Positions 103 through 57,866 of a stretch of 64,000 bases of DNA are shown one piece after another. The notes beneath the pieces were generated by a model. The model was not told the origin of the DNA and searched no databases. It worked only from the letters and a program-made list of their open reading frames with translations. Each line of letters begins with the position of its first letter. The stretch's first letter is position 1. The position numbers and the translations under genes are program-made. The stretch spans positions 34,587 through 98,586 of the forward strand of contig CAVPHA010000015.1 of the NCBI GenBank assembly GCA_963704125.1, in the 5' to 3' direction. Origin of the DNA: an uncultured Acidobacteriota bacterium. GTDB taxonomy: Bacteria > Acidobacteriota > Thermoanaerobaculia > Thermoanaerobaculales > Sulfomarinibacteraceae.

Positions 103-525
103 CTGGATGCTGGATCACTGGATGCTGGATGCTGGATGCTGGATGCCGGAAGGTTGATCTCAGCAGACGGTAATCGTGAGTTGTGACCCGTGAATTGAGG
201 GCGAGTTGAGCCTGAAAACTGCTGCTTCTCCGGGATGTCGCAGCGCCGGACTCAATGGGCGCCTACACGGAACTCCTCGCCCCTCCCGAAAACTGAGGTG
301 TTACTTGAGCCTCTTGCAGAATTCCCGTTTCTCGGAGGATCGTCGTCAGTGGTCTTCTCGCCGGCGGGGGCGCCGGCGCCACAAAGGGCCGATGTTCATT
401 GTGGGGCCGGCGCCCTCGCCGGCCTGGGGCCGCAGCGGAGGGGTCCCCAGTTCCGTCAACACTCCGAGTTTTGCAACAGGCTCACTTAACAACTCCGGCT
501 CACGACTTCCTCGGTAGCCGGTTTC
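103..525. repeat. Heptad-periodic palindromic intergenic element E1: (CTGGATG)6 array plus inverted GTGAGNN-type arms
   Basis: Tandem CTGGATG units at 103-145. Arm 174-220 (cgtgagt tgtgacc cgtgaat ... gagttgagcctgaaaact) is an imperfect inverted copy of 466-510 (gagttttgcaacaggctcacttaacaactccggctcacgac). Confidence 0.5.
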
Positions 526-559
526 CCGCGAGTTGAGGTGTCACCACCGTCGCCGTCAG

Positions 560-1084
560 TCATTTTCCTCGCTTGGCCTCGACCAGCCTCAGCATCCAGC
601 CGACGATGGTGCTTCGCTCCGAACGGCCGAGCTTCTCCATGACCCGGTCGCCCGTGCTGACAAAGTCCTTGAGGCGAGCCAGTTGGTCGCCGAACGACCT
701 GGCTTCTGGGCCATCCAAGTGACCGGATGCCTCGAGACAGCGATGAAGGACATCAAGTACCGGCTCGACCTCCTTGCGCTTGCGCTCGCGCATGATTGCG
801 ACGAATACCTTCCATGGGTCTTTTTCTCCGACAAAGCTCTCCCTGCGCTCACCCTTTCGGATGGCGCTCGTGACGATGCCCATGGCAACGAGCTGCTTCG
901 AGCGCTCCATGTGCGCCCCCTCGGCTGATGGAGAGCGCATCCATGATCTCGTCCGTGGTCAGGGGGTCGTTGCTGACCATCAGCAGGGCGTGGATTCTCG
1001 CAACGAGCGGGTCATTCCCCAAGCGGGACCAAGGGCCCCCCACTCTGCGATGAATTCGTCCTTGAAATCCTGCAGCGTCTCCAT
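560..1084 (-). CDS. GbsR/MarR-family winged-helix transcriptional regulator, frame interrupted twice
   Basis: Three minus-strand segments join into about 175 codons: METLQDFKDEFIAEWGALGPAWG (ATG 1084), then DPLVARIHALLMVSNDPLTTDEIMDALSISRG (ORF 849-1043), then HMERSKQLVAMGIVTSAIRKGERRESFVGEKDPWKVF... (ORF 560-940). The pattern is typical of GbsR-type regulators. The first and last segments share one frame. Confidence 0.6.
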
Positions 1085-1111
1085 CCCGTCGAGTCTAACC
1101 GCCGATCCTGA

Positions 1112-1129
1112 GAATATTTCAAAATATTC
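1112..1129. promoter_or_regulatory. Palindromic operator candidate GAATATTT-CA-AAATATTC
   Basis: 8+8 nt inverted repeat read directly. It lies in the 90-bp AT-rich gap between the divergent GbsR-like gene (ATG 1084, minus) and the NmrA-like gene (ATG 1176). Confidence 0.5.
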
Positions 1130-1153
1130 TGAAAAATCGTTGCATTCTATAAT

Positions 1154-3574: not shown

Positions 3575-3811
3575 TCAGAGCTTGCTGTGGGATCCGTCGC
3601 AACGCGGCTTATCGCCGGTCTTTTTGCACATGCAGATCGCGAGGGTGGATTTGGCCGCCACTTCCAGGGTCACCGGTTTGATCCCGCTCCCCTCGTGCGA
3701 CCGGTCGCACCAAGGCTGGTTCGCTGAGCGTCCGCAAGCACACCAGAAGTAGACACCTCTCTCGAGTTGGAGCACAACCGGCGCCGTGCCCGCGATCTTG
3801 GGTTCCGACAT
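3575..3811 (-). CDS. CDGSH iron-sulfur domain protein (two CDGSH-type motifs)
   Basis: MSEPKIAG...CACGRSANQPWCDRSHEG...CMCKKTGDKPRCDGSHSKL. Two C-x-C-x(8-10)-C-D-x-S-H motifs. 78 codons from ATG 3811. Confidence 0.85.
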   Translation of the reverse strand: MSEPKIAGTAPVVLQLERGVYFWCACGRSANQPWCDRSHEGSGIKPVTLEVAAKSTLAICMCKKTGDKPRCDGSHSKL

Positions 3812-3877
3812 GAATACCTCGATCCTTTGGAAACTCGCTCCAACCAAGATAGCAGGGTCGCCGCCAGGGTCCCGGAA

Positions 3878-4363
3878 ATGAACCGCAAGGACGCGAGGAA
3901 CGCAAGGCGTCGCAAACGCTTCATATGGGGCACGGATCGGGCTCGCTCCCAATGACAAAGACCCACGTCACCCTGAGCGCAGCGACCTCCTAGGTCGCGT
4001 AGTCGGAGCTCCCCTGAGGGTTGGAAGACCGCTCCTGTTGGCTCGTCCCACCGACCCTCGGGAGATTCTTCGACTCCCTCGCGGACTCGCTCGCTCAGAA
4101 TCACAGGTTTTTCGGCAGCTCCCGTCATTCCAAAGGTGGGCGACGCCAGGCGGCGTGGCGGTGCTCAGAATGACGGGCATCTTTCGGCCGCCGTCATCCC
4201 ACAGGCAGGCGCCGCCCTGGAGCGTGGCGGTGTTCGGGTCGACGACGATTCTCAGCGACTCCGCCGGCCGGGTCGGTTGCGATGCTTTGCGATGTCTTTG
4301 CGCCTTTGCGTCTTTGCTTTTCAACCCTGCGATGGAGCGATGCCTCTGCGCCTCTGCGTTAAG
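3878..4363. repeat. Heptad-periodic palindromic element E2 (long form with about 330-bp core)
   Basis: Left terminus 3878-3942: atgaac cgcaagg acgcgagg aacgcaagg cgtcgca...ggggcacggatcgg. Right terminus 4276-4363: ttgcgatg ctttgcgatg tctttgcg cctttgcg tctttgc ttttcaacc ctgcgatg...ctctgcg cctctgcg. The core carries gtca(c/t)cctgagc / ctcagaatgacgg hairpin motifs. Confidence 0.7.
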
Positions 4364-4371
4364 ACTCTCGC

Positions 4372-7026
4372 CTATCCACCGATGAGCGCCCTGACCTGTT
4401 CAGGCGCCTTCGCCAACGCCTCGTCGAGCTTGTCGACATCGGGACCGCCGGCCTGGGCGAGATTGGGTTTGCCGCCGCCTCGGCCGCCGACCACGGTGGC
4501 GAGCTCGCGGACGAGATCCCCGGCCTTGATCCGACCGGTGATGTCATCGGTGACGGCGGCGAGCAGGGTCGCCTTGCCATCCGACTCCATCCCCAGGACC
4601 ACCACCCCCGACCCCAACTTCTGGCGCATGGTGTCGGCCAGATTGCGGAGCTCTCCGGGGCTCATTTCCGGCGCCCGGCGGGCAAGCACCATCACGCCTT
4701 CGACCTCTTCGCGGATCTCCTCGACCCCGACATCACCCGAGGCGAGCTTGTGCTTGAGGGTCTTGACCTCGCGCTCGAGCTCGGAGAGCTGGCGATCGCG
4801 CTTGTCGAGGAGCTCGGGCAGCTGTTCGAAAGAGGTCTGGTAGCGACCCGCAAGTTCGTGCGCGAGCCGGGTGCGGTCCTGGACCAGCTCCACCGCGCCG
4901 CGGCCGGTCACAGCTTCGATGCGCCGCACCCCGGCGGCGACGCCGCGTTCGCCGGTGATGGTGCACAGACCGATGTCGCCGGTGCGATCGACGTGGCAGC
5001 CGCCGCAGAGCTCGCGCGAGAACTCACCATCGCCGACGGTGACGACCCGGACGTTCTCGCCGTACTTCTCACCGAAGAGCGCCATGGCGCCGAGGGCCTT
5101 CGCAGCGTCGATTGGCATGACGGTTTTGTCGAGGGGCCGGTTGCGGACGATCTCGGCGTTGACCAGCCGCTCGATCTCCTGGAGCTCGGCAAAGCTCACC
5201 GGCCCGTCCCACGAGAAGTCGAAGCGCAGCCGGTCGGGCTCGACCAACGAGCCGGCCTGCTGGGCGGCGTCGCCGAGCACGCGGTGAAGAGCGGCGTGGA
5301 GCAGGTGGGTGGCGGTGTGGTTGCGTTGGGTGTCGACCCGCGGGCCCTCGGAAACCGTGGCGATGACGGCGGCGCCCTTGACCAGCGCTCCCTCGATGAC
5401 CTCGATGCGGTGGACGATGAGACCGTCGATGGGTTTTTGGGTGTCGAAAACGCGGGCGTGACCACCCTCCCAGGTGATCTCGCCGCTGTCCCCGACCTGA
5501 CCGCCCGACTCGCCGAAAAACGGAGTCGTTTCGAGGACGACCTCACCCGACTCGCCGGGTTCGAGCTGATCCTCGAGCCCGTCCTCGCCGATGAGAGCGA
5601 TGACCTCGGTGTCGAGGGTGAGCCTTTCATAGCCGTCAAACTCCGATTTGACCCCCTTGTCGGCGAGATCCTCGTACTCTTCACGGTACCGGGCGGCGAG
5701 ATCGCCCTTCCACGACGCCTGACCGCGCTCGCGTTCCACCCTCAGCTCTTCCCGGAAACCCTCGTGATCGAGGGTGAGGCCTTCTTCCTGGGCAAACTCC
5801 TCAACCAGCTCGACTGGAATGCCGTGGGTCTGATAAAGATCAAAAACCACTCGCCCGGGAACCACCGTCTCGCCCGAGCGCTTGATCCGCTCGAGCTCGC
5901 GGCCGGCGATGTCGGTGCCGGCGTTGAGGGTGCGGGCGAAACGCCGCTCCTCCTGCTCGAGCTGGGTGGCGACAATTTCGTGGCGCTCGATGAGCTCGGG
6001 GTACTGCTCGCCCATAATTTCATCGACTACGGGCAACAAGGTGTAGAGGAACGCGCCGTCGAGACCGAGCTTGCGGCCGTAGCGCAGCGCGCGCCGGATG
6101 ATCCGGCGCAGCACATAGCCGCGGCCCTCGTTGGAGGGCACGACGCCGTCGGTGAGCAGGAACGCCGCGGCGCGGATGTGGTCCGCGATCACCCGGTATG
6201 CGGGAGCGAGTTCGCTCGCCGGGTCGTAGGGCCGCTCGACGAGTTTGCCGATGGCGTCGATGATGGGTACGAAGAGATCGGTGTCGTAGTTGGTTTCGAC
6301 CCCCTGCATGACGGTGGCGATGCGTTCGAGTCCGGCGCCGGTGTCGATGGAGGGGCGGGGCAGCGGTTCGAGCTTACCCGTCGGATCGCGATCGAACTGC
6401 ATGAAGACGAGGTTCCAGATCTCGATGATGTCGTCGCCCTCGCCGTTGACGAGCTCGGCGCGGCCCGGCGCGAAGGGGTCGGGGCCGCGATCGAAGTGGA
6501 TCTCGGAACAGGGACCGCAGGGACCGGTCTCGCCCATGGCCCAGTAGTTGTCCTTCTCGCCGAAGCGCAGGATGCGTTCCGGAGCGGCGCCGATCTCCTC
6601 CCAGAGCGCCGCGGCCTCGTCGTCATCGGTGTAGACGGTGAACCACAGCCGATCGACGGGCATGTCATAGACATCGACCAACAGGTCCCAGGCGAACCGG
6701 ATGGCGTCCCGCTTGAAATAGTCGCCGAAGGAAAAATTGCCGAGCATCTCGAAAAAGGTGTGGTGGCGCGCGGTGTAGCCCACATTCTCGAGGTCGTTGT
6801 GCTTGCCGCCGGCGCGGACGCACTTCTGCGATGAGGTGGCGCGGTTGTACGGTCGCTTCTCGCGGCCGATGAAGGTGTCCTTGAACTGGTTCATCCCGGC
6901 GTTGGCGAAGAGCAGGGTGGTGTCGCCGGCCGGCAACAACGAAGATGACGGCACGACCTGGTGGCCGTGCCCGGCAAAGAAGTCAAGAAAGGCGGCCCGG
7001 ATCTCCGAGCTGGTCATCGATTTCAT
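4372..7026 (-). CDS. alaS: Alanine--tRNA ligase
   Basis: 884-codon uninterrupted ORF. N-terminus SSEIRAAFLDFFAGHGHQVVPSSSL, then HHTFFEMLGNFSFGDYFK, the editing-domain HTATHLLHAAL motif, and a C-terminal DHHA1-like GGGKPNLAQAGG. Confidence 0.97.
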   Translation of the reverse strand: MKSMTSSEIRAAFLDFFAGHGHQVVPSSSLLPAGDTTLLFANAGMNQFKDTFIGREKRPYNRATSSQKCVRAGGKHNDLENVGYTARHHTFFEMLGNFSFGDYFKRDAIRFAWDLLVDVYDMPVDRLWFTVYTDDDEAAALWEEIGAAPERILRFGEKDNYWAMGETGPCGPCSEIHFDRGPDPFAPGRAELVNGEGDDIIEIWNLVFMQFDRDPTGKLEPLPRPSIDTGAGLERIATVMQGVETNYDTDLFVPIIDAIGKLVERPYDPASELAPAYRVIADHIRAAAFLLTDGVVPSNEGRGYVLRRIIRRALRYGRKLGLDGAFLYTLLPVVDEIMGEQYPELIERHEIVATQLEQEERRFARTLNAGTDIAGRELERIKRSGETVVPGRVVFDLYQTHGIPVELVEEFAQEEGLTLDHEGFREELRVERERGQASWKGDLAARYREEYEDLADKGVKSEFDGYERLTLDTEVIALIGEDGLEDQLEPGESGEVVLETTPFFGESGGQVGDSGEITWEGGHARVFDTQKPIDGLIVHRIEVIEGALVKGAAVIATVSEGPRVDTQRNHTATHLLHAALHRVLGDAAQQAGSLVEPDRLRFDFSWDGPVSFAELQEIERLVNAEIVRNRPLDKTVMPIDAAKALGAMALFGEKYGENVRVVTVGDGEFSRELCGGCHVDRTGDIGLCTITGERGVAAGVRRIEAVTGRGAVELVQDRTRLAHELAGRYQTSFEQLPELLDKRDRQLSELEREVKTLKHKLASGDVGVEEIREEVEGVMVLARRAPEMSPGELRNLADTMRQKLGSGVVVLGMESDGKATLLAAVTDDITGRIKAGDLVRELATVVGGRGGGKPNLAQAGGPDVDKLDEALAKAPEQVRALIGG

Positions 7027-7498
7027 GGTCTGAACTCTCCCTCTCGGTCGCGAGCCGGGTCACTGCGCGATAAGCGATATCGGCTGTAAACCCGCAGGCG
7101 ATGAGGGAGCTTACCAGACGTGCCCGGCGCTCGGGAAGCCGCCACCACCCCGGTTTCGCCCGCACCTCGACCTTGCGAACGGCGGTTTCAAGGGCGCGAC
7201 CGTGGAGCTCTTCTCCCAAAATGGACACCCGCTCGGCGAGATCGCCGTCGACCCCTCGACGGCGAAGCTCGAGCACCAGCCTGCGCGGGCCCCACCCGCG
7301 ATCGACCGAACGAAATTCGACAAAACGCTCCGCAAGCGCTTCATCGTCGAGCAGCCCGATCTCCGCCAGCCGCTCCAGGGCACGTTCGATATCGTCACTC
7401 TCGAAGCCCTTGCGGCGTAGCTTCTCAACCAGTTCGGCGCGGAAGTGATCGCGCCGGGCAAGCAGCTTGAGAGCTTTGTCGAAAGCGGGATTTTTCAA
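6983..7498 (-). CDS. recX: Recombination regulator RecX
   Basis: 171 codons, apparent TTG start at 7498. Repeated helical RecX pattern (ALKLLARRDHFRAELVEKLRRKGF...IERALERLAEIGLLDDEALAERF). Conserved recX-alaS synteny. Its 3' end overlaps the annotated alaS start by about 40 nt. Confidence 0.8.
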   Translation of the reverse strand: MKNPAFDKALKLLARRDHFRAELVEKLRRKGFESDDIERALERLAEIGLLDDEALAERFVEFRSVDRGWGPRRLVLELRRRGVDGDLAERVSILGEELHGRALETAVRKVEVRAKPGWWRLPERRARLVSSLIACGFTADIAYRAVTRLATERESSDHEIDDQLGDPGRLS

Positions 7499-7594
7499 TT
7501 CTTAATTCTAAACTCTTAATTCTTAATTACCATCGCAAGACCCCCGGTTGTGCCTGCGATGAAATTAAAAATTCATAATTAAAAATTCATAATT
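7498..7594. repeat. Heptad-periodic palindromic element E3 (AT-rich TTCTTAA subfamily)
   Basis: ttcttaa ttctaaa ctcttaa ttcttaa tt ac CATCGCA agacccccggttgtgcc TGCGATG a aattaaaaattcataattaaaaattcataatt. Same grammar as 53900-54016. Confidence 0.7.
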
Positions 7595-7630
7595 CGAGTT
7601 TGGAGCCTATTCGGAGGCTCCAAACTCGAA
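7593..7630 (-). terminator. Intrinsic-terminator-like hairpin overlapping the pilT stop codon
   Basis: Perfect 15-bp stem TTCGAGTTTGGAGCC (7593-7607) / GGCTCCAAACTCGAA (7616-7630) with an 8-nt loop. On the minus-strand RNA it is followed by UUAUGAAUUUUUAAUU. The pilT stop lies in the loop. Confidence 0.6.
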
Positions 7631-8788: not shown

Positions 8789-8870
8789 CGACGAACCTCC
8801 GTTGGCGAACCTGATCACGTCAAGTGTACATCGGGATGCGGGTGGGGTGGAGTGGTTTGCCGCGCTGCGC

Positions 8871-9154
8871 GGAGGTATTAGGTATTAGGTGTTAGGTATT
8901 AGGTCATCGCAGTGGTGGTTGCCGGCGGCGCTTCCCCTTTGGATAAATGGTATTGGATGCCTGATTGATTCGCTGCCGGAAGGCGGCTGATTTGCAGCGC
9001 TGACGCCCCGTCGGCGTCGAGGACGACGAAGGTGGCTATGACGCCCACGAGACGTGCGCGCTACAACAAGCGATGCGGAGCCATCCACGAAGTCCTCCAT
9101 CCCAGAAACCGGATACAAATGCGATGGAGCTAATACCTAATACCTGATACCTCC
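8871..9154. repeat. Heptad-periodic palindromic element E4 (GGTATTA subfamily, 208-bp core)
   Basis: 8871-8911: ggaggtatta ggtatta ggtgtta ggtatta ggt CATCGCA. 9120-9154: TGCGATG gagc taatacc taatacc tgatacc tcc. Lies in the divergent pilT / symporter promoter gap. Confidence 0.75.
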
Positions 9155-9178
9155 GTAGCCCCAGCTACAATCCCCCTT

Positions 9179-10570
9179 GTGCCGAGTCTTGCCCTGATCC
9201 TGGTTGCGATCTACGCCATCGGCCTTCTGGCGCTGGCGCGGGGGAAGCCGTCCGCGGGCGGGATGGACTATCTCCTCGCCGGACGCAAGCTGACGCTCCC
9301 CGCCTTTGTCGCCACCCTGGTCACCACCTGGTACGGCGGCATCCTCGGGGTCGGCGAGTACGCCTGGCGCTTCGGGATCTCGACCTGGGTCGTCTTCGGC
9401 CTCCCCTATTACGCGGCCGCCCTGCTCTTCGCCTTCTGGCTCGCGCCGCGGCTGCGCCGAAGCGGCGCCGCGTCGATCCCCGATCTCCTGCTCGGCGCCT
9501 ACGGCCGGGGCGCCCGGCTCACCGGCGCCGCGGCCATCTTCGGTCTTACCCTGCCGGTCGCCTATCTGCTCATGCTGGCGACCCTTCTCACCCAGCTCAC
9601 CGGATGGCCGCCGCTGGTCGCGGTGGCGGTGGGGGCGGCCTTCTCGGCCGCTCTATGTCGGGATCTCGGGCTTCCGATCGGTGGTCCGGACCGACATCCT
9701 CCAGTTCGGACTCATGTACGCGGGGTTCTTCATCCTGCTCCCCGCCGCGCTGGCCCACACCGGCGGTCTTGCCGGTCTCTGGTCGACGCTCCCGGCGGAG
9801 CACCGGAGCTGGGACGGCGGTCTCGGTTGGCAGACGGTCCTGGTCTGGTATCTCATCGCGCTCCAGACCATGGTCGAGCCCAGCTTCTATCAACGGGTCT
9901 TCGCCGCCCGGACCCCCGCCGTCGCCCGTTCCGGCGTCGTGGTTTCGGTGGCGTTGTGGGCGCTCTTCGATTTCTTCTCCATCAGCTGTGGTCTTGCGGC
10001 CCGAGTGCTGCTGCCCCATCTCGACGACCCCCTCACCGCGTACCCCGCGCTCGCCGCAGATGGTGCTGCCGGCCTGGCTCGCTGCCTTTTTCACCCTGGC
10101 GCTCTTCGCCACCGTGATGTCGACCCTCGATTCTTATCTCTTTCTCTCCGCCGCCACCGTCGGCCACGATCTGACGAAGACTCCTCCATCACCCGGACAG
10201 GAGCGCCGGCGCATCCGTGCCGGTCTCTTCCTGTCCGCCATCCTCGCCTCGATCGGCGCCCTGCGTCTTCGACTCGGCGGTGACGGTCTGGCACCATGTC
10301 GGTTCGGTGGTGACCTCGGCGCTGCTGCTGCCCGTGGTCGGCGTCCACCTCCCCCAGCGCTGGCGGTTCAGTCCCATGGCGGCGACGACCGCCATGATCA
10401 GTGCGGCCGCGGTCGCGCTCGGCTGGATTCTCGCCGCCGGCGACGCAGGCTACCCCTTGGGAGTCGAACCCATGTTCCCCGCGCTCGGGTTGTCGGCGCT
10501 GGTTTGGGTCGTGGACAGGTCCAACGCAGAGACGCAGTGGCGCAGAGGCGCAGAGCCATCGCAGGGATGA
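9179..10570 (+). CDS. Sodium:solute symporter (SSS) family transporter, about 3 frame interruptions
   Basis: GTG 9179. Segments in three frames join: ...TTWYGGILGVGEYAWRFGIS..., ...LYVGISGFRSVVRTDILQFGLMYAGFF...SFYQRVFAART..., ...LFATVMSTLDSYLF..., ...VWHHVGSVVTSALLLPVV... The last about 50 nt are repeat E5 sequence. Confidence 0.75.
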
Positions 10571-10802
10571 ACCGCAAGGACGCAAGGGGCGCAAGGACAT
10601 CACATCATTCAATCATCACAACGTCTCAACCACGAAGACGCGAAGGAATCGCACGCGAAGACATCGCAGACGTCGCAAATAGGACGCGGATGATCACGGA
10701 TTCCGCGTTCATCCGCGTCCCATTGCGATGGACCTCTGCGCCTCTGCGTTGAACTGCGATGGTTGCGATGTCCTTGCGTCCCTTGCGACCTTGCGGTTCA
10801 AT
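10520..10802. repeat. Heptad-periodic palindromic element E5 (coreless form)
   Basis: Modules (cgcagag)n-catcgca, atgaac-(cgcaagg)3, tcaac-(cacgaag/acgcgaag)-acatcgca, then GGACGCGGATGA-tcacggattccgcgt-TCATCCGCGTCC at the centre. Followed by cattgcgatg-(ctctgcg)-ttgaac-tgcgatg-(ccttgcg)3-gttcaat. Confidence 0.8.
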
Positions 10803-10843
10803 CTGATCCCGAAGCGGGCGTACAATTCTCCCAGGAGGATCCC

Positions 10844-46053: not shown

Positions 46054-46076
46054 GCGCCACACCACACTGAACTTCG

Positions 46077-46105: not shown

Positions 46106-46530
46106 TGAACGTGATCGGTGAACCGTGATCCGCTCATCGGCAGCGACATCGTTCAACACAATGGGACACGGATCAACACGGATGAACGCAGATTGCACGG
46201 ATTCTTATCGAGAGTTGGATCGTGGCTATTCGCCTTCAACTTTGCATCGGCTGGATCGCCTGCTTGCAGGGCCAGGTCATTGATTTGGAAACGGATTTCA
46301 CCGATCGCTCTTCTGCACCTTCCTGATGAGTCAACACCTGGCTCCGTGAAGATCCGTCACAGATCAGAAACGACAACCTACCGGCATCCGAGCGCGACAC
46401 CACGAAGTCAGAGCTCGAACCAGAATTCGGACGCCACCCTCAAGAAAAATCCGTGTCCATCTGCGTCTCATCCGTGTCCTATTTGCGATGGTCTTGGCGT
46501 TCTTTGCGTCTTTGCGGTGAAACTGCGATG
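46105..46530. repeat. Heptad-periodic palindromic element E10 (long form with about 240-bp core)
   Basis: Left: gtgaac gtgatcg gtgaac cgtgatc...gacatcg ttcaac acaat gggacacggatcaacacggatgaacgcagattgcacggattc. Right (46446-46530): aaaaatccgtgtccatctgcgtctcatccgtgtcc tat ttgcgatg gtcttggcg ttctttgcg tctttgcg gtgaaa ctgcgatg. Confidence 0.75.
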
Positions 46531-46579
46531 GGCCCTCGCGCGCTCTTGCCCCTCCGCTCTTGCCCGGTACTGTTCCCCC

Positions 46580-48289
46580 ATGAGCGACATCTTCCGCAAT
46601 CTGCCCGACAACGTGCGCGATCTCGTCCGGCGCGCCGGCATCGATCATCGCGATCGCGGCATCACCATCTTCGACGGCCGCGGTCGAAACTCCGACCGAC
46701 GCAGCTATGCCGAAGCTACTCGAACTCGCGACCGCGGCGGCTTCCCGTTTCGACTCTCTGGGCATCGGCCCCGGCGAACCGGTGATGGTCGCCCTTCCGA
46801 CCTCCTGGGAGTGGTTGGAGGCGTGGATGGGTCTGCTCTTTCGCGGCGCCCTGCCGGTCGCGAGCTCCGGCGCCAGCGGACTCGCCGCCGCCGAGACCCA
46901 GCTCGGCAAGATCGATCAGGTCATGGGCGCCATCGGCGCCCGTCACGTCATCGCCGGCGCGGCGTTCCGCGATCAGGCCGCAGCCGGCGGATTCGACCGC
47001 GCGTCCTCGCGGCGTCATCACCCCCGAAGAGCTGCGCGCGGCCGACCCGACCCGGGCTTCGAGCCACCCGACCATCGGCGCCGACGACGTCGCCTTCCTC
47101 CAGCTCACCTCGGGTTCCACCGGACTGCCCCGGGCGGTCATGATCACCCACCGCGGCGCGGTCCACAATCCCGCCGCCAACTGTGAGAGTTCCTCCGGAC
47201 AGATGCGGCAGCCGATCCAGGACTGGGTCGAGTGCATGATCGTCCTGGCTGCCGCTCTACCACGACATGGGTCTCATCGGCTGTCTCCTGCTGCCGCTTC
47301 TGATCGGCTACGAGCTTCGAGCTGCTTCGGCCCCAGACCTTTCTCGCCCGACCCATGTTGTGGCTCCGCGAACTCGCGACCAACGGCCTCAGCTTCGCAC
47401 CGGCGCCCAACTTCGGCTATCAGCTCTGCGTCGAGAGGATCAAACCCGACCAGCTCGAGGGATGCGGATCTGTCGAACTTCAAGGTCGCCCTCACCGGCG
47501 CCGAGATGGTCCGACGCGAGACCGCCGATGCCTTTGTCGAGGCGTTCGCCCCGTTCGGATTCACCCCGGAGAGCGTTCGTGCCCTGCTACGGACTCGCCG
47601 AAGCCACCCTCGCCGTCACCTTCGACCAGGAGGGGAAAGGGGTGCGCACCCTCCCCGCCCCGGCCGGCAGCCGACGCCGGGTTCGCCATGGCCGAGGTGG
47701 TGAGCGTCGGCCGGCCGATCCGGGACACCGAGTCAAGATCGTCGCCCCCGACGGACGCCGGCTCGGGGAGGACGCCGTCGGCGAGGTCTGCATCAACGGC
47801 CCGGGGGTCTTCGCCGGGTACTACCGCGACGACGAGGCCACCGCCGAGAGTCTCGATCGACGGTTGGTATCACACCGGTGATCTCGGATTTCTCCACGAC
47901 GGCGAGCTCTATCTCACCGGCCGGATCAAGGATGTCCTCATCGTTCGCGGCCACAATCTCATGCCCGATGAGATCGAGCGCCTCGCCGATGCCGTCACCG
48001 GCGGCGGGGGTCTGATGCGCTCCGCCGCGTTTTCGGTGGCGCGCGGCGCCGCCGGCGAGGAACCGGTCCTCGTGGTCGAGAGCCGGAACCGATGATGCCG
48101 ATACTCTCGGACGCCATCGCCCGCGAGATCAAGATCGAGGTCGGCCGCGCCCTCGGCCTGCCGCTCGCCGATGTCGTCTTTGTCCGCCGCGGGCGAATCC
48201 CGAGAACGACGAGCGGCAAGATGCAGCGGGCCGAGGTCCGCAAGCGGTATATCGAGGGGACGTTGGAGGTCATCGGGGGTGAGGGGTAA
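46580..48289 (+). CDS. Fatty acyl-AMP ligase / AMP-dependent synthetase (FAAL-like), about 8 frame interruptions
   Basis: ATG 46580. AFLQLTSGSTGLPRAVMITH (AMP motif); WLPLYHDMGLIG; NFGYQLC; CYGLAEATLAV; GWYHTGDLGF; LTGRIKDVLIVRGHNLMPDEIE; RIPRTTSGKMQR. Stitched across all three frames. Confidence 0.8.
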
Positions 48290-48385
48290 AGGGTTAGGAG
48301 TTAGGAGATGAGGAAGTCGAAGACCGTTGTGACCGCCTTACCCTTACTCCTCACTCCTCACTCTTAACTCCTCACCTCCTCACCC
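48278..48385. repeat. Heptad-periodic palindromic element E11 (GTTAGGA subfamily)
   Basis: ggtgagg ggtaaag ggttagg agttagg agatgagg aag - spacer - cttaccc ttactcc tcactcc tcactct taactcc tcacctc ctcaccc. The left arm includes the last codons and TAA of the FAAL gene. Confidence 0.7.
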
Positions 48386-48427
48386 GATCGCAGCTACAAT
48401 GCCCCGCGAAGGAGAGCACACTCAGGC

Positions 48428-48702: not shown

Positions 48703-49946
48703 ATGCGACCACGCAGCGTCAACGACGTCCTCAACTGGCTGGTGGTGGTTCTCGCCTTCTCGCTGCCGCTCTACCGCGCATGGGTGAGCCTCGCCGCCAT
48801 CCTGATTCTGCTCCTGTGGTTCTTCCAGGACCGGCCTCAATGATCGCGAAGCGCAAGCTCGGACACCACCGTCTGACCCTGGCCATCCTGGTCTTTCTCG
48901 CTCTCAACCTGCGTCTCGCTCCTGTGGTCCGAGGATCCGGCCGGCGGCTTCGAGTACTGGCGCAAGTACCTCTACCTCCTTCTTGGTGCCCGGCCATCGC
49001 CTCGAGCCTGCGACCGGTCTTCGCCCGACGGCCTTCGTCGCCTTTCTCGCCGCAACCGTGTCTCGTCGGTGGCCATGATGCCCGTCGTCATCATCGGCGA
49101 CATCCACATCCGCCACATCCACCCGGACAACCCGGCCGCCACCATGTCGCATCTGGACTACAGCATGGTGCTGGCGGTCGCGGGCGTGCTGATCCTCGTC
49201 CATCTCGCCCACTCGACCATGCGGGGCGCGGCAGCGACGCTGTGGATCCTGCTCTTCGGGGTCGTCATCGGCGGCTTGTTGCTCAACATCGGCCGCAGCG
49301 GTCAGTTCGCCTTCGTCGCGACCCTGGCGGTGCTCGTCCCGTTTCTCCTGCGCCGACGCTCGTGGCTCGTCCAGGTCGCGGTCCTGGTCGTGGTCGCCAC
49401 CGCCCTGCTCGCGGCCTATCTTCGTGGTCACACCATTTCAGCCAGCGAGTCGAGACCGCCGCCGTCGAACTCCACGATGCCGTCGTCGAGCACCGGGTCG
49501 ACACCAACCAGGGCAAGCGGGTGGCGGCGATGGTCGTCGGACTCGAGATCGTTCGCGCCCACCCCGTCCTCGGGACCGGAATCGGCGGCAACATGCCCGA
49601 GTTCCGCCGCCTGCTCGAGACCGACTACCCACAGTTCAGGGATGCGGTGAGCTGGTTCCCACACTTCCACAACCAGTACATGCAGGTGACCACCGAACTC
49701 GGGCTGGTGGGGCTGCTCGTCGCTGCTGGCGATGTTTGCGGCCCTCTTCACCGGACGCTAACCGAAGCCCCGAGTTCCAGGCGGCGGCGGTGGCCGTCGG
49801 CTGCGTCTATCTCTTCGGCTTCCTCGGCGACCCGTTTCTCCACAAGCAGCTGCCGCTTGGCGCTCTTCGCCCTCGTCGCCGGGGTCATCTCGTCGAATGA
49901 CGAGGTGTTTGTGGACACGAGTTCACAGTCGACTGTCGACAGTTGA
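48703..49946 (+). CDS. O-antigen ligase / Wzy_C-family polytopic membrane protein, about 6 frame interruptions
   Basis: ATG 48703: MRPRSVNDVLNWLVVVLAFSLPLYRAWVSLAAILILLLWF. Many hydrophobic segments. GTGIGGNMPEF...FPHFHNQYMQVTTELGLVGLL matches the Wzy_C loop. The 3' end runs into repeat E12. Confidence 0.65.
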
Positions 49947-50300
49947 CAGTTGAAGTACATCGTATGGCGCGATTGGCCTGATCGGCGAGTCGGCAGCTCG
50001 AGCGACTGGCGACTTCGTACTCAGACCTTCGTGTCCTCAGCTGATTTGTCTTGAAACACGAAGAGCACGAAGTTACACAGAAGATCTCCACGAAGCATCG
50101 CAGTGTTGACCCGGACCCTACCTTGAAGCAGATTGTGAAATCTCTCCTGAATCCTTGCGATGGGTCAAGAAATGTCCTTTGTGATTTCTTCGTGGTCTTC
50201 GTGTTTCAAAGGTGCCTTGTCGGCTGCGTTTGCCGATCCACGAAGTCGTTTGCCGATCCGGCAGTGGGTACAAACAAATCACGAATCACGGATCACCGCT
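49921..50300. repeat. Heptad-periodic palindromic element E12 (nested; CACGAAG core module with AGTTGAC, GATCGGC and AATCACG flanking arrays)
   Basis: 50051-50102: ttgaaa cacgaag agcacgaag ttacacagaag atctccacgaag catcgcag. 50153-50210: ccttgcgatg...tcctttgtg atttcttcgtg gtcttcgtg tttcaaa. Flanks: 49921-49962 gttcac agtcgac tgtcgac agttgac agttgaa. 50270-50300: aatcacg aatcacg gatcacc. Confidence 0.75.
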
Positions 50301-52052
50301 CACTTTCGCGTCGCCATCCTGATCGCCTTCCAAACCTGCGGTCGCGAGGCGGCGATATTCGTCGCAGTCGCGCAGCAACTCGGCCTTGGTCCCGGCGCCG
50401 ACGATCCGTCCTCGCCTTGAGCACGAGGATCCGGTCGGCGAGATCGACGGTGGACAGCCGGTGGGCGATGATGAAGGTGATCCGGTTGCGGATGATCTCC
50501 GAGAGGGCGCGCTGGATCGCCGCCTCCGACCGGTTGTCGAGGGCCGATGTCGCCTCGTCGAGGATGAGCACGTCGGGATCGCGGTAGATGGCGCGGGCGA
50601 TGGCCAGACGCTGCCGCTGACCGCCCGAGAGATTGGCGCCGAACTCGTCGAGGATCGCATCGATGCCGCCGTCCATGGCCGAGACGAAGTCCCAGGCGCC
50701 GGCTTCGCGCAGGCGCATTCTCCACCCTCTCGCGGTCGGCATCGCGGCCGTAGGCGACGTTGCGACGCCACCGTGTCGTTGAAGATGTAGACCCGCTGGG
50801 TCACGACTCCGATGCGACAGCGGAGCTCGGCCGAGATCGAGCTCGCGGGCATCGACGCCGTTGATCCGCAGCACGCCCTCGCGTCGGGTCGTAGAACCGC
50901 AGCACCAGGTTGACCAGGGAGGTCTTCCCGCCGCCGCTGTCGCCGACCAGGGCGATGGTCTCGCCCGCCCGTGACCTCGAGGCTCGACGCCCGCGCAGGG
51001 CCCGGCACGTCGCCGTAGGACAGGTGGACATCGTCGAAGCTCGACCGAGGCGATGGGTCCGTCGATGGAGCGATCCCCCGAGTGATCTGCGGCTGCAGAT
51101 CGAGGAGGTCGAAGATCCGTTCCGACGCCGCCACGGCTTCGAACATCTGGTTCGACGCCTGGGAGATCCGTTTGATCGGGTTGTAGATGCTGAAGAGCGC
51201 CACGGTGAATCGCATGAAGTCCGCGAACTCCATCGTTCCCGGCCATGATTTCGCGACCACCGAACCAGATCACGAGCGCAGCGGCGATGGCGCCGAGGAA
51301 CTCCATGAGCGGGTTGGTGAGCTCCCGGGTTCGCACCCCCTTCATGTTGATCCGCCGAAATTCCAGGTTTTCGGCTTCGAACCGGCTCGAGCTTCGAAAT
51401 CCTCGGCGGTCTGCGCCTTGATGATCTCGATGTTGTTGAAGATCTCCGCCAGACGCGAGCCGTGATGTCCGAGTCCTTTTCCTGCGAGCGGTGCATGATC
51501 GCTTGAAGCGTTTCGCCAGGGCGGCGAGGGGCCACACCGCCAGCGGCAGGACCACCAGGCCCCAGAAGGCGAGCTTGGGGCTCGCCACGATCACGACGCA
51601 CGACGAACGCGATCGCGATCAGGCTTTCCCTGATGACCACGGCGAGCTGCTGGGTGACGGCCATCCTGATCCGGTTGATGTCGTTGGTCACCCTGCGAGA
51701 TGAGCTCGCCGCCGCGGAACCGGTTGAAGAAATCCGAGATCGAGGCTGACGATATGACCCGAGCAGCCGGTCCCGCAGACGGCGGACGATGTCGAGTCCG
51801 ACCCACTGGAGCTCGTAGACCTGGAGGTAGCGGCCGACCCCGACAAAAAAGAACAAGACCACCACGGCTGCCGGGCAGGACGCTTGATCATGAGACTGTC
51901 CGGGGCGATGAAGACTCCTTGATGACATCCTTGATCAGATACATGACGGCGCCGTAGGCCGCGGCGCCGACCAGACCGCCGATGAACGAAACGGCGATCC
52001 GACCCTTGTAGTCCTTGAGGTAGGGACCGAGTCGACGAAGGAACTGCCACAT
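50286..52052 (-). CDS. ABC transporter, fused permease/ATPase (MsbA-like lipid/polysaccharide exporter), about 8 frame interruptions
   Basis: ATG 52052: MWQFLRRLGPYLKDYKGRIAVSFIGGLVGAAAYG. Walker A GDSGGGKTSLVNLVLRFYDP. Signature/Walker B LSGGQRQRLAIARAIYRDPDVLILDEATSALD. IIAHRLSTV. Confidence 0.8.
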
Positions 52053-53884: not shown

Positions 53885-53899
53885 GCCCGCAGCTCACCA

Positions 53900-54016
53900 G
53901 TTCTTAATTCTTAATTCTTAATTCTTAATTATTCATCGCACGCTCATCGTCCGCAATGGCCTTGCGTGACTTCTGTGCGCTGAATTAAGAATTCAGAATT
54001 AAGAATTGAGAATTCA
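53900..54016. repeat. Heptad-periodic palindromic element E13 (AT-rich TTCTTAA subfamily)
   Basis: (ttcttaa)4 ttatt CATCGCA cgctcatcgtccgcaatggccttgcgtgacttctg TGCGCTG aattaag aattcag aattaag aattgag aattc. Same subfamily as 7498-7594. Confidence 0.8.
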
Positions 54017-54048
54017 TCTCGCGTCGACTTCGCGGCAGGCCTATACAG

Positions 54049-55236: not shown

Positions 55237-56315
55237 CTCGTCGATCCCGCCGCGGGAAGTTCCTTCACGTACACATCCTGCTTGGGATAGGGGATCTCGA
55301 TCCCGGCGTGCTGCGAACGCCTTGTAGACCCTTCGGTTGAGCTCGTCGAGCACCCGGCCGCGATAGAGGGGTTGTTCGATCCAGGCAAGCAGTTCGAAGT
55401 CGAGGCCGGAGTCGCCGAAGGTCCGAAACCGAACCCGCGGCGCGGGTTCGCCGACCAGATAGCGGCGCATCCTCGCTGCACGACCGAGCAGCACATCACG
55501 GACCTGATCCACATCACTGCCGTAGGCCGCCGAGACCTTGACCCGAACCCGCATCTTGTCGTGCGGACCGCCGGTTTCGTTGACGATGCGACCGTTGCCG
55601 ATGACCGCGTTGGGCACGGTCACCTCGACATCGTCCCGGTCAGAATCCGGGTCGATCGAATCCCGATCTCCTGAACCTCACCGCGCAGACCACCGTCGAG
55701 AACGACAAAATCACCCACCTTGTAGGGTGCATCGGCGAGGATGAAGACCCCGGAGAAGAGATTCGCCAGGGTGTCCTTGGCGGCAAAACCGACGGCGATC
55801 CCGACGATCCCCGCCGATGCCAGCCACGAGGTCAAGGGCACATTCCACGCGACGCAGATGAAATAGACACCGGCGCCGACGACCAGGAACTTCGCCACCA
55901 TGTCGAGCAGCGGCACCGTCTTCGGCTGGATCCAATGAAAACGATCGACGTTGCGGCTCAGCGCCTCGAGCACCACCTTGCTCGACCGCAACAGGGCAAT
56001 GCTCCACATCACGATGATCAGGGTCGACAAGAAACCCTTGATCGCCAGATCGACCGTCTCGGGGAGATGAAGCGGGATCTCAGCCAGCCAGAATCCACCA
56101 AAGACAAAAGACCAGAAGATCGGTCCCTTGAGGATCGCCGCGATCTTGTCATCGACATCGGTGTCGGTGCACTTGGTCAGCCGGTGGACCAGGTGCCGGA
56201 AGGTGAAACGGGCGATGAACGCCACCAAAATCGCAGCAACGAAAATCGCCGCTGCACGTTGGTTCGGCGATTCGGGAAGGTAGGGGATTCGGGCGAGCAG
56301 TGTGTTCATGTCCAT
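55188..56315 (-). CDS. mscS: Small-conductance mechanosensitive channel (MscS family), about 2-3 frame interruptions in the C-terminal half
   Basis: ATG 56315. TM region, then SAGIVGIAVGFAAKDTLANLFSGVFILADAPYKVGDFVVLDG..GEVQEIGIRSTRILT; DDVEVTVPNAVIGNGRIVN; IEIPYPKQDVYV in other frames. Confidence 0.8.
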
Positions 56316-56422
56316 GCTGAGTACATCCTCACCGGGAGTTCATCGGATCTCGTTTCGTGATCAGTATAGGGCGCGCAGGAGAATCGTCCGCCGACATCCG
56401 CCGATCGACGTGTCATGATGAA

Positions 56423-57769
56423 ATGGCGATGATCGAATTTGGAGGGCGCGGTTTGAATCCAAGGGACTTCACCCGGAAGCTGATCCGCTGGACGGCGATC
56501 GGTATCGGCGCCCTCGTCGTGACCTCGGCCCTGGGCTCCTTCGCACTGCATACCTACGGCGCCTACCGGCTCGACCGTGCACGAACGGATTTCAGCGCGA
56601 GCTGGGGGCATCTCGCACTCTCCAGGCCTGCTGCACCGGTCCCCGACGACGAGAACGGCGCCCGGTGGCTGGTGGCGGGCGGGGACGCCATCGTGTGTTC
56701 GGATGAAGACCGGAGGTTCTACGGTCAGCTTTCGGACCGGCCGGCGGCGGAGTGGACCGACGCGGAGCGGTCCCGTGCCCGGTGGATTCTCCACGAGCAA
56801 CAGAACGCGCTCGGAATCCTCCTTCGTTCGGGAACCTGCGAGACCTTCAACCTCGGCTCCGACGGTCTTCGCCCAAGCTATGAAACGGTTGAATTTTCGA
56901 GCATCGTGATGGGTGTCCGTCTTCTCGTGCTCGAGGCCCGCCTGGCCTGGAGCGAGGGCCGCACGGCCGACGCATTGGCGGCGCTCGACGCGGCAGGCCG
57001 GTCTGCCGACGGCCTCCTGCAGACGCCGATTGTGATGGTCTCGACCATCGGCTCGGCCGCCGACAGATGGGTGGCGGCAGTGGCGACGGCTATCGTCAGC
57101 GATCCCTCCGCCAGCGCGGCGACGCTGCGAAACCTCCGGGCGATCCTGCCTTCAGTAGACCCGGTCCAGAGCACCAATATGACCTTCGCAATTTCCATCG
57201 CAGAGCTCGCCGACGAGGGGTTCCAGTACATCGAGGAATCCTTCGATCCCTCCATGGGCTGGGCCGTTCCCTTCTGGATCTCCAATCACTATCTCTTGGA
57301 GGACCTCTACCTTGCCGAAGTCCTCGAGGGCTGGCGGCGTTTTCTCGAGATCGGCAAGACGCCGGCGGCTCTCTGGTCCCCGGACGCCATCCGTGAGATC
57401 TGGGAAGACCCCTCGTGGCCGCAATGGCTGGCCATGACCGGGGCCTACACCCCGAACCTGCTGCCCGCGACAGCCCGGGCGCAGGCGGCGTCCACCGAAC
57501 TCCAGCAACTCGAGCTTGCGATCGAACTCCGGTTGGCATCGCCCGGGGGACTCGGCCCGGATGCCTGCGAGCTCATCAGCGAGACCCGGCCGACCGCCCT
57601 GACCGGAGAACCGATCGACTGCCGATTCGACGACATTCGGTGTCTGATCGTCATCGAAGCCCCGGGCGCCGAGCACGCACTGAGCCCGTTCGTCCCACCT
57701 CAAAGCAAGGCTGCGCAGATTCGACCCATAGAGATCCCGGTCACGCTTGGCGGCACCGGTTGTGAATGA
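56423..57769 (+). CDS. Hypothetical membrane-anchored protein (single N-terminal TM, helical ectodomain)
   Basis: ATG 56423, 448 codons uninterrupted. TM WTAIGIGALVVTSALGSFAL. The rest is Ala/Leu/Trp-rich with no motif I recognise. Confidence 0.5.
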   Translation: MAMIEFGGRGLNPRDFTRKLIRWTAIGIGALVVTSALGSFALHTYGAYRLDRARTDFSASWGHLALSRPAAPVPDDENGARWLVAGGDAIVCSDEDRRFYGQLSDRPAAEWTDAERSRARWILHEQQNALGILLRSGTCETFNLGSDGLRPSYETVEFSSIVMGVRLLVLEARLAWSEGRTADALAALDAAGRSADGLLQTPIVMVSTIGSAADRWVAAVATAIVSDPSASAATLRNLRAILPSVDPVQSTNMTFAISIAELADEGFQYIEESFDPSMGWAVPFWISNHYLLEDLYLAEVLEGWRRFLEIGKTPAALWSPDAIREIWEDPSWPQWLAMTGAYTPNLLPATARAQAASTELQQLELAIELRLASPGGLGPDACELISETRPTALTGEPIDCRFDDIRCLIVIEAPGAEHALSPFVPPQSKAAQIRPIEIPVTLGGTGCE

Positions 57770-57777
57770 GCGCTGCG

Positions 57778-57866
57778 GGAACCGTTAGGAAGTTAGGAGG
57801 TTAGAAGGTTAGAGACGTGAGAATGGAAATTCCGTCTCGTCCAAGCTTCTCACGTCCTCACTTCCC
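57778..57866. repeat. Heptad-periodic element E14 (GTTAGGA subfamily, asymmetric arms)
   Basis: gggaac cgttagg aagttagg aggttag aaggttag agacgtgag aatgg - aaattccgtctcgt - ccaagcttctcacgtcctcacttccc. GACGTGAGAA / TTCTCACGTC pair. Confidence 0.6.

Follow-up and report, generated by a model that had tools for sequence, protein, structure and literature searches.

Palindromes with arms of short tandem units recur between the genes of an uncultured Acidobacteriota bacterium (Thermoanaerobaculia; Thermoanaerobaculales; Sulfomarinibacteraceae), and the question that they raise is whether they form one family, how copies come to stand at separate sites and whether they act as DNA or as RNA. We addressed this for 64,000 nucleotides (nt) of contig CAVPHA010000015.1 (assembly GCA_963704125.1, positions 34,587 to 98,586), the whole stretch being referred to as the window, for which an earlier note had listed 14 sites with one grammar: an outer joint, tandem heptamers, CATCGCA and an inverted copy of the same. 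Palindromes with arms of tandem 7-10-nt units were found at 10-12 intergenic sites, all of them outside confirmed genes. We tentatively read them, at a little short of even confidence, as copies belonging to a superfamily of modular palindromic repeats, non-coding and spread across the lineage, that act like the mosaics of repetitive extragenic palindromes (REPs) and bacterial interspersed mosaic elements (BIMEs), or like foldback-type miniature inverted-repeat transposable elements (MITEs). The analysis covers 64 kb of the organism's own genome, together with relatives and viral contigs as loci amounting to ~2.1 Mb, a small part of any one genome.

A modular family of intergenic palindromes

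The repeats were recovered independently by Tandem Repeats Finder (TRF) and an inverted-repeat finder, and arrays and inverted partners both lie where a modular, dyad-symmetric family had been claimed. A typical site consists of 3-7 tandem short units, an inward-facing CATCGCA, a spacer, and TGCGATG followed by the complementary arrays (element names are those of Table 1). The inner stem CATCGCA/TGCGATG, hereafter the tag, occurs in ten elements and always in the same orientation, with TGCGATG to the right of CATCGCA; of the 34 copies of these heptamers in the window, 25 fall within elements, which occupy ~5% of the sequence. A strict form of the grammar (three tandem units at a period of 7-10, followed within 10 nt by CATCGCA with no more than one mismatch) matched 12 times in the window and 0-1 times (mean 0.2) in 20 dinucleotide shuffles, whilst the 23-nt degenerate pattern of the D module described below matched five times against 0.01 expected. 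Folding z-scores ranged from -7 to -12 at 8865-9160, 10515-10805, 12875-13410 and 53895-54020 (E8, z = -9), from -3 to -6 at 7490-7600, 16405-16580, 50045-50215, 57775-57870 and 48270-48390, and were about -2 at 3870-4370, 46100-46535 and 42040-42270; excess folding was absent at 45510-45585 (z about +1) and 49915-50050. Since independent assemblies of relatives (L001, L002, L004 and L082) carry the same elements at the same intergenic gaps, an assembly artefact is ruled out.

The original description required narrowing in several respects. The common grammar held at most of the 14 sites, four lacking the tag and/or the partner arm. The arrays are not heptads throughout, periods of 6, 7, 8, 9 and 10 nt being returned by TRF: arrays starting at 102, 7497, 8873, 48342, 49920 and 53901 have period 7, whereas a period of 8-9 nt applies to CGCAAAG, CGCAGAG and CACGAAG, one of 10 nt to CGCGGAT and one of 6 nt to CCCGTG/CGGGCA. 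The statement that elements occupy almost every longer intergenic gap is true of ~3.5-17 kb and 42-58 kb; there are none at 17-42 kb or 58-64 kb, and the long gaps 14156-14326 and 17137-18304 contain no element. A TTGAAC-type joint, for its part, is present in three module types (K, E and H) and absent from the others.

These modules were defined as K, TTGAAC-(CGCAARG N)n-CATCGCA; E, TTCAA-(CGCAGAG N)n-CATCGCA; H, TTGAAAC-(CACRAAG NN)n-CATCGCA; and D, AATRGGA-(CRCGGAT NNN)n, the last always occupying the innermost position. Other, unrelated alphabets are GGTATTA, TTCTTAA/AATTATG, GTTAGGA, CTGGATG, AGTTGAC and AATCACG, together with the hexamers CCCGTG/CGGGCA, giving at least eight in the window, mostly as inverted pairs with a tag. 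The terminal inverted repeats read TTGAAC...GTTCAA, the arms are 30-110 nt long and 76-95% complementary, and loops reach 200-350 nt. Modules K, E, H and D are connected through CATCGCA-type linkers in E3, E4, E6, E11 and elements of the relative L002. Partner arms are unlike in unit number and even in module content, and in E3, where D and D' are separated by a 1-nt loop, the modules follow a different order on each side; such elements would not result from a simple inverted duplication.

E3 and E4, at loci 2.3 kb apart, share non-repetitive junctions: 31 nt with one difference on the left, CATCGCA[G/A]ACGTCGCAAATAGGACGCGGATGA, and 30 identical nt on the right, TCCGCGTTCATCCGCGTCCCATTGCGATGG. 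Near-identity of non-repetitive sequence at separate loci implies that the copies arose from each other or share an origin. None of the 12 elements shows a target-site duplication at its ends.

Persistence and turnover in relatives

The window encodes an alanyl-tRNA synthetase (4372-7026, minus strand; Pfam) with 84-86% identity to its counterparts in the Thermoanaerobaculales/Acidobacteriota metagenome bins L001, L002 and L004 and ~55% to those of other Thermoanaerobaculia. In these three syntenic relatives, with ~80% nucleotide identity in genes, the genes align and the intergenic gaps do not. Against this background E1, between pilT and recX, is retained in L001 and L004 as well as the window. 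AATTATG-type units make up one arm and AAGAATT-type units the other, both tags are kept and the loops differ fully; each arm holds its own consensus in the three genomes. At the same site L083 has an empty 28-nt gap, and L082 and L002 have other structures. The counterpart of E2 in L082 retains both arms and a 72%-identical interior with conserved blocks, and is inverted, aligning in plus orientation where all flanking genes (pilT and the divergent gene) align in minus; in L002 one array and the tags are all that is left of E2. A site-specific inversion at the E2 tag was considered and dropped, as the AGGT/AGCYC junctions keep their gene side in the window and L082 and not in L002, an ambiguous result.

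The orthologue of E6 in L002 has different modules on each arm and a fusion of a D unit with the S segment at a GATCAACA microhomology. The S segment is a 120-nt GC-rich sequence inside E4 that folds at -97.6 kcal/mol (z -6.4), the plus strand more stably than the minus, and it has no Rfam match. A homologue with 85% identity, with changes on both sides of the long stem, lies within another, non-orthologous composite element of L002 (13349-13479), and remnants (GACTCCGCC...TGCGATG) are found at 4262-4284 of the window and 12775-12803 of L002. The comparisons show elements that gain, lose and shuffle modules independently in each arm and vary in unit number, interiors that have been deleted between microhomologies, and a between-arm segment that can invert; they show, in short, a multi-copy modular palindromic superfamily with fast internal turnover and long-lived sites, enriched in one clade.

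Distribution across the clade, other phyla and viral contigs

Tagged modules are limited to the closest relatives (L082, L002, L001, L004 and L119). The density of CRCVRRK-type arrays drops with phylogenetic distance: per 100 kb there are 18.8 in the window, against 11.4 for close relatives, 4.1 for the remaining Thermoanaerobaculia and 1.9 for other phyla. Arrays of period 6-12 occur at ~4-5 per 10 kb across the Thermoanaerobaculia versus ~1.4 elsewhere. Hairpins with tandem-repeat arms are common in Thermoanaerobaculia and found also in Pyrinomonadaceae, Bryobacterales and others, in some cases with the same unit (e.g. GCGCAAAG in L039).

The pattern TTGAAMCRCRAAGNNCRCRAAG was found in 24 stretches of IMG/VR viral contigs of 38-69% G+C, some with several copies. 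One phage-like contig, L184 (IMGVR_UViG_3300044712_001751), encodes an integrase, a phage metallopeptidase, a methyltransferase and a radical SAM protein, and between 1840 and 8520 has period-9 arrays of CACGAAG, CACGGAG, CACGGAT and CGCAGAT in most intergenic gaps. In phage-like contigs including this one, where the arrays are often of this kind, single arms stand directly before an ATG with the last unit serving as Shine-Dalgarno sequence (AAGGAG or GGAG). Four related viral contigs have an H-type stem that is almost constant, G-U/A-U alternation being the only change; their loops are variable, and runs of A and T follow the hairpin. The tagged K-module pattern had no match in the viral contigs, and a BLAST search with E3 returned none among cultured phages (INPHARED) or plasmids (PLSDB).

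Separately, an exact D-type module, AATAGGA CGCGGATGAA CGCGGATAAA CGCGGATCGG, was observed at 488-530 of the viral contig L081 (IMGVR_UViG_3300033991_000115) as a single arm just 5' of AAAGGAG-N6-ATG. In more distant soil metagenome contigs (L107 20010-20130, L113 2031-3302 and L116 4005-5233), inverted arrays of CAGCAACT units occur, as do GGTCTCGC arrays to either side of recX.

Arm polarity

A total of 78 inverted tandem-array pairs was assembled across all sequence analysed. The 5' arm was purine-rich in 54 pairs versus pyrimidine-rich in 22 (p=3e-4), had more G than C in 57 versus 18 (p=7e-6), and had more GGA than TCC in 24 versus 3. A Shine-Dalgarno-like core (GGAG, GAGG or AGGA) was confined to the 5' arm in 16 pairs, with one the opposite way, and was absent from 57 of 74 pairs. 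The purine bias held after removal of the pattern-selected viral loci (44 versus 22, p=0.009), the AT-rich TTCTTAA family being an exception of opposite polarity. Because a palindrome reads alike on both strands, arm polarity is intrinsic to the element, and it suggests that a single strand (RNA or single-stranded DNA) is under constraint, rather than binding sites in duplex DNA. At E1, the sense RNA folds 5-10 kcal/mol better than the antisense in all three orthologues.

Element catalogue and gene context

Coordinates are collected in Table 1. Gene context was taken from Pfam and synteny blocks, since three gene finders (G+C at third codon positions, GC3; codon/hexamer log-odds; 3-base periodicity) gave unreliable maps. 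The G+C content of the window is 62-75%.

Table 1. Palindromic elements, their parts and single arrays in the window.
Feature	Positions	Strand	Structure	Gap or remark
Single array	102-150	+	(GCTGGAT)x6.9; no inverted partner, no tag	Few nt past stop codon; given as 103-525 in the earlier note
E6	3878-4365		Composite	Tandem gap, alaS stop to CDGSH gene start
E6, left arm	3878-3918		K module
E6, interior			Two 55-75-nt direct repeats and GACTCCGCC remnant of S element
E6, right arm	4277-4365		K' + E', four TGCGATG-type tags
E1	7497-7595		AT-rich hairpin, AATTCTT/AATTATG units	Tandem gap, pilT stop to recX
E1, tags	7531, 7555		CATCGCA (7531), 17-nt loop, TGCGATG (7555)
E2	8871-9155		(GGTATTA)n-CATCGCA, 208-nt conserved interior, TGCGATG-(TAATACC)n	Divergent gap, pilT/9179
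E3	10520-10802		Composite: left E-K-H-D, right D'-E'-K'	Tandem gap
E4	12878-13408		Composite: left K-H-D, 300-nt interior, right D'-E'-K'	Convergent gap, tsaE/SDR
S segment	13154-13274	+	Multi-branched junction fold	Inside E4
E5	16411-16576		H-type hairpin: TTGAAAC-(CACAAAG/CACGAAG)n-CATCGAA, loop, TGCGATG-(CTTTGTG)n-GTTTCA	Tandem gap
Hexamer array	16612-16658	+	(TCGGGC)x7.8	E5's gap; alphabet recurs reversed at 42042-42075
Loose array cluster	42042-42266		6-7-nt arrays (CCCGTG, ACCGTG, GATCACG)	Weakly palindromic, z about -2, no tag
E12	45515-45580	-	Modules of a single arm, TGCGATG/TGCGACG tags; no hairpin	Divergent gap
E11	46105-46535		Composite	Tandem gap; thioredoxin gene and canonical terminator (46076-46099) directly before
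E10	48278-48385		(GTTAGGA/GTGAGGA)n versus (CTCCTCA)n; good palindrome, no tag	Tandem gap to ACP gene
Single array	49920-49953	+	(AGTTGAC)x4.9, then CATCGTA	Overlaps Wzy_C stop; AGTTGAC unit also in L002, L008
E7	50051-50210		H-type hairpin	Convergent gap, Wzy_C/ABC transporter
Single array	50277-50296	+	(AATCACG)x2.9	3' end of ABC-transporter gene
E8	53899-54016		(TTCTTAA)x4.3-CATCGCA (53934), 35-nt loop, TGCGCTG-(GAATTAA)x4.7	Convergent gap, PilZ/MltA
E9	57778-57866		(GTTAGGAG)n; good palindrome, no tag	Convergent gap, 470-aa open reading frame/DctM gene

As had been suggested, elements accompany genes in all orientations (four convergent, six tandem and two divergent gaps), and in most cases the element starts 0-15 nt past the upstream stop codon. 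For E10 the upstream stop codon falls within the left array. The TTG start of recX (7498) lies within the terminal unit of E1, in the 3' arm, with the RecX_HTH1 domain beginning at residue 5 of the open reading frame that this TTG opens. On the downstream side, TACAAT hexamers at 9166, 10821 and 48395 lie 9-18 nt past the right ends of E2, E3 and E10 (9 nt in the case of E10), are preceded by AGC/GCG and correspond to TACACT or TACAAT in relatives; they probably serve the downstream genes as -10 boxes, the final repeat unit then falling in the -35 region. E12 adjoins a downstream TTGACA-17-TAGTAT promoter-like site. In E11, D arms of CACGGAT units surround a 250-nt interior, the right arm having an extra K' and two TGCGATG tags, whilst E7 reads TTGAAAC-(CACGAAG)n-CATCGCA (50096), loop, TGCGATG (50156)-(CTTCGTG)n-GTTTCAA. 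Within E6, 4093-4235 consists of two tandem ~72-nt copies, 75% identical, each with a GTCATTCC...GAATGAC hairpin.

The claim that the elements are not simple terminators was borne out. None of the main hairpins has a 3-8-nt loop with a T run, and scans for intrinsic terminators gave 15 matches versus 10.8+/-3.1 and 10 versus 8.3+/-3.3, i.e. counts at chance, none of the matches being a main hairpin. Without a loop-plus-T-run signature and with terminator counts at chance, the elements are not intrinsic terminators. A reading of TGAAC-N16/17 as promoters for extracytoplasmic function (ECF) sigma factors was rejected because the downstream part reads CGCA or CACG and not CGT; resemblances to boxA, Rho rut sites, triplexes (PMC4666352) and LexA boxes were also considered, and no test gave support. 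In Rfam no family matched the elements (gathering score, E<=1); the window has no match at gathering score, and its sole match at E<=1 is an unrelated sub-threshold nhaA-I riboswitch candidate (RF03057) at 44925-44968 on the minus strand (32.1 bits versus a gathering score of 37, E=0.014). The earlier note's suggestion of RKDAK-type proteins translated from such arrays was not confirmed, the sole open reading frame of the window that translates a K array (3767-3955) having no homologue in the protein collection.

Several other features of the window were noted. At 12074, ~12830, 46560-48289 and 50293-51594 several genes have the appearance of being frameshifted: the YjeF/Carb_kinase domain breaks off at profile position 145 of 242, the C-terminus of TsaE runs on in a different frame, an acyl-AMP-ligase-like region is broken into several open reading frames and the ABC transporter consists of partial domain matches. 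This suggests indel errors of the assembly, or pseudogenes; such errors are incapable of creating the repeats described here. A 45-nt unit is repeated twice in tandem (77% match) at 44455-44542, apparently within a coding region, and no tRNA or tmRNA was found in the window. Two REP-like palindromes that are almost the same (CGTCGCACCATCGGCGTGGTCGC / GCGACCACGCCGATGG) stand 15 kb apart at 2485-2553 and 17847-17914 and constitute a separate repeat family without tandem units; a palindrome of an intergenic gap in L002, CCCAATCAGCGTGGTCG...CGACCACGCTGATTGAG, is similar to this pair. Finally, 17137-18304 comprises 1.17 kb without codon periodicity, the 3' part of which is AT-rich with repeated TGCCGCA...TGCGGCA palindromes that surround a TTGACA/TATATT promoter-like site upstream of the gene at 18305, and looks like an operator array for some regulator.

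Relation to known repeats

A likeness to REP/BIME elements and to cyanobacterial short tandemly repeated repetitive (STRR) sequences had been suggested and is supported in part of the architecture of each. In common with the proteobacterial REPs, BIMEs and REP doublets forming hairpins (REPINs), which are mobilised by Y1-type REP-associated tyrosine transposases (RAYTs), the elements are extragenic, multi-copy imperfect palindromes (at least 12 sites here), their K/E/H/D composites forming mosaic clusters of alternating orientation with short conserved linkers. They also carry a short conserved tag on otherwise different stems, show no target duplication, persist long at orthologous sites and often lie near stop codons. 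REPs carry GTAG or CGTC tags (PMC3733652), unpaired and at the foot of stems of 5-13 bp; here the tag is the internal, paired CATCGCA/TGCGATG, there is no GTAG or CGTC at the feet, and the arms are 30-110 nt of tandem 7-10-nt sub-repeats with loops of up to 350 nt. No RAYT was found in the 64-kb window and the ~2.1 Mb of loci.

Eukaryotic foldback (FB) elements, of the MITE type, have terminal inverted repeats made of tandem sub-repeats. Long inverted arms of short tandem sub-repeats, a variable middle and internal deletions and inversions are likewise seen in our elements, whereas target-site duplication, a size class, a conserved interior (S excepted) and an autonomous copy were not found. 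As the elements differ from REPs in tag type, tag position and stem size, and from MITEs in duplication, interior and autonomous copy, they are set apart from both. Nearer in phylogeny, Acidobacteria encode Y1 transposases termed TIRYTs together with terminal inverted repeat (TIR) families (Di Nocera et al. 2013, PMC3733652), which belong to the same phylum, comprise inverted repeats unrelated to GTAG REPs and form dimers or clusters; tandem sub-repeats are not described there, and no TIRYT gene is present in the sequence analysed here.

The earlier note knew of no description of this architecture, which is not quite so. In Geobacter metallireducens, 24, 21 and 8 inverted pairs of 3-5 tandem units at variable spacing have been catalogued, with the consensus sequences GTTGCTYN, TCTCCGTS[Y] and MTYCTGA, guessed without test to be IHF/HU sites and listed as 'predicted global regulator binding sites'; two insertion sequences keep a constant distance to class 1 sites (Aklujkar et al. 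2009, PMC2700814). Like our elements these class 1-3 sites are inverted intergenic pairs of 3-5 tandem 7-9-nt units at variable spacing with a purine-rich 5' arm. The units are similar and not identical: MTYCTGA compares with AATTCTK and CTCCTCA of the window, GTTGCTYN with CAGCAACT in L107, and TCTCCGTS is the reverse complement of the CACGGAG units in L184. They differ in belonging to another phylum and to a descriptive catalogue in which no CATCGCA tag, TTGAAC end or module nesting was reported. In G. bemidjiensis, palindromic and direct-repeat families occupy 12% of intergenic gaps. STRR sequences and the TAACTGA repeats of Beggiatoaceae are tandem heptanucleotide intergenic arrays, often immediately 5' of start codons and of patchy phylogenetic spread; the latter comprise 169 direct sets versus one indirect (PMC4679880), and both consist of one heptamer in direct arrays without tag, modules or hairpin, in contrast to the eight or more mostly inverted-paired alphabets here. 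Our literature search found no description of the tag, the modules or the polarity.

Origin and function of the elements

In the reading as copies of a lineage-wide repeat superfamily, an arm is a string of modules, each with 2-5 units of 7-10 nt in tandem. An outer TTGAAC-type end marks the K, E and H modules, and in this clade there is an inner CATCGCA tag, the two tags pairing as the top of the stem. Units may expand and contract by slipped-strand mispairing, and modules or whole elements may be copied between intergenic gaps by some enzyme or by gene conversion. An enzyme would most plausibly act on single-stranded hairpin DNA, as RAYT- and TIRYT-type transposases do, and insertion would leave no target duplication. 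The elements would then be long-lived residents occupying the interval between the upstream stop codon and whichever promoter or start codon comes next. Transcripts would fold into long hairpins, purine/GGA-rich in the 5' arm and pyrimidine-rich in the 3' arm, and would probably act post-transcriptionally by insulating or stabilising neighbouring messages, the pilT-recX hairpin probably occluding the recX start. We favour this account because E3 and E4 share non-repetitive junctions, and because S recurs in L002 whereas ordinary intergenic DNA is unalignable. E3, E4 and the L002 orthologue of E6 have a modular, nested build, and E1 (window, L001, L004) and E2 (window, L082, L002) persist, E2 being inverted in L082. 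Further reasons are the clade enrichment, the recurrence of the same alphabets in a phage-like contig, the arm polarity with the single-strand constraint that it argues for, the hint of an RNA role given by the better sense fold of E1 with the recX start in its 3' arm, and the existence in Acidobacteria of TIR-associated Y1 transposases with repeat families (PMC3733652).

A number of observations weigh against it. Loops and interiors are unrelated among most copies of the same family, S excepted (compare 7538-7554 with 53941-53975), which is unlike typical MITEs. Neither the window nor the ~2.1 Mb of loci yielded a transposase or other enzyme with arms on its flanks, and a search of all loci for open reading frames between inverted arms 350-3500 nt apart returned only gene-flanking arrays and no transposase. 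The occurrence of the same alphabets in distant phyla could mean a common binding factor rather than mobility. The gap upstream of pilT contains some tandem array in almost every relative, usually of a different alphabet, so that origin in place fits there as well as insertion. With regard to the RNA-level part of the account, among six elements in tandem gaps the sense strand was favoured in two and the antisense in three, an inconsistency owing to which an RNA function remains a proposal. Stem mismatches lack an overall wobble bias (G-T mismatches number 25 for the top strand and 19 for the bottom, and 38 are of transversion type); as partner arms also diverge in units and modules, the earlier note's suggestion of selection on structure rather than sequence was not supported. 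Since the same units turn up at distinct loci and also in other phyla and phage contigs, sequence families matter and not structure alone.

The single-strand constraint implied by the polarity statistics would be explained directly if the elements were regulatory RNA hairpins that arose where they stand, were kept by selection and are immobile, the nascent purine/GGA-rich 5' arm being bound by ribosomes or a CsrA-like protein and then sequestered by the pyrimidine-rich 3' arm, so as to set translation coupling, RNA processing or message stability. We consider this unlikely. It accommodates the better sense fold of E1 in three orthologues with the recX start in the 3' arm, the single arms of phage-like contigs that end in AAGGAG or GGAG before an ATG, and the four viral contigs with variable loops on a stem that is invariant or changed by G-U/A-U alternation only; heptamer arrays near start codons in Beggiatoaceae have been proposed as post-transcriptional sites (PMC4679880). 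It accounts poorly for the many transversion mismatches in stems without overall wobble bias, for the inconsistent sense-strand advantage, for the 57 of 74 pairs without a Shine-Dalgarno core and for the reversed polarity of the AT-rich family, and identical junctions and a common interior at non-orthologous sites need copying rather than local evolution alone.

Tandem operators with 7-bp (omega protein of pSM19035) and 8-bp (MetJ) units exist, and the elements could be iterated binding sites, with one protein dimer per 7-9-bp unit (as for ribbon-helix-helix operators or nucleoid proteins) and pairs that bracket or loop intergenic DNA, which is the global-regulator idea put forward for G. metallireducens. 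The AATCACG/GATCACG units at 50277 and 42245 resemble the omega heptad, WATCACW; the architecture is that of the mostly intergenic Geobacter class 1-3 sites, similar alphabets (ATTCTGA/CTCCTGA, CACGGAG, GTTGCT-like) recur across phyla, and the arms of E1 each keep their own consensus in three genomes without turning complementary. At least eight unrelated alphabets in 64 kb would, however, need equally many proteins, the common tag and the strong 5'-purine polarity have no reason in duplex sites, unit number and module order vary freely, and most elements lie past stop codons in convergent or tandem gaps and not at promoters, all of which makes this explanation unlikely in our view.

The echoes in other phyla allow a broader and more speculative view, improbable as it stands, in which the elements of Acidobacteriota, phages and Geobacter belong to one cross-phylum class with purine/GGA- or Shine-Dalgarno-like 5' and anti-Shine-Dalgarno-like 3' arms, either produced by a dedicated copying mechanism or recognised by a conserved reader, which may be e.g. 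the 16S rRNA 3' tail or a CsrA-type protein. Such elements would act as co-transcriptional switches or ribosome decoys, and an enzyme restricted to this clade would recognise or cleave CATCGCA when moving or inverting modules.

We doubt strongly that the elements are a neutral by-product of slippage at existing hairpins and of template switching between quasi-palindrome arms, with neither function nor transposition. The changing alphabets upstream of pilT, the unequal unit numbers between arms and orthologues, and the generally raised level of period 6-12 arrays in Thermoanaerobaculia are what such a process would give, but it leaves unexplained why different alphabets have a common tag, why non-repetitive junctions and alphabets are shared (the latter across phyla and phage), why the arms obey a polarity rule and why the arms and tags of E1 are kept despite fully diverged loops. 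Plain transcription terminators, bidirectional in convergent gaps, are very improbable: although most elements stand 0-15 nt past a stop codon, four of them in convergent gaps, and A and T runs follow the H-type hairpin in four viral contigs, no main hairpin has the required loop and T run, scan counts are at chance, loops reach 200-350 nt, a canonical terminator is used right beside E11, and E2 and E12 lie in divergent gaps upstream of promoters.

Significance

Small intergenic repeats such as REPs, BIMEs, REPINs and MITEs are the best cases of long-lived, semi-domesticated bacterial DNA and have been studied almost only in Proteobacteria. The elements described here would represent a different design in an abundant, little-studied phylum of soil and sediment, one with arms of expandable units, interchangeable modules, a common inner tag and strand polarity, and with parallels in phages and Geobacter that received a single mention and no later study. 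The enzyme or reader protein of these elements, if found, would explain spurious 'hypothetical proteins' and broken alignments of metagenome bins, and would provide both a handle on the control of gene boundaries in Acidobacteriota and a new system in which to study how repeat populations persist.

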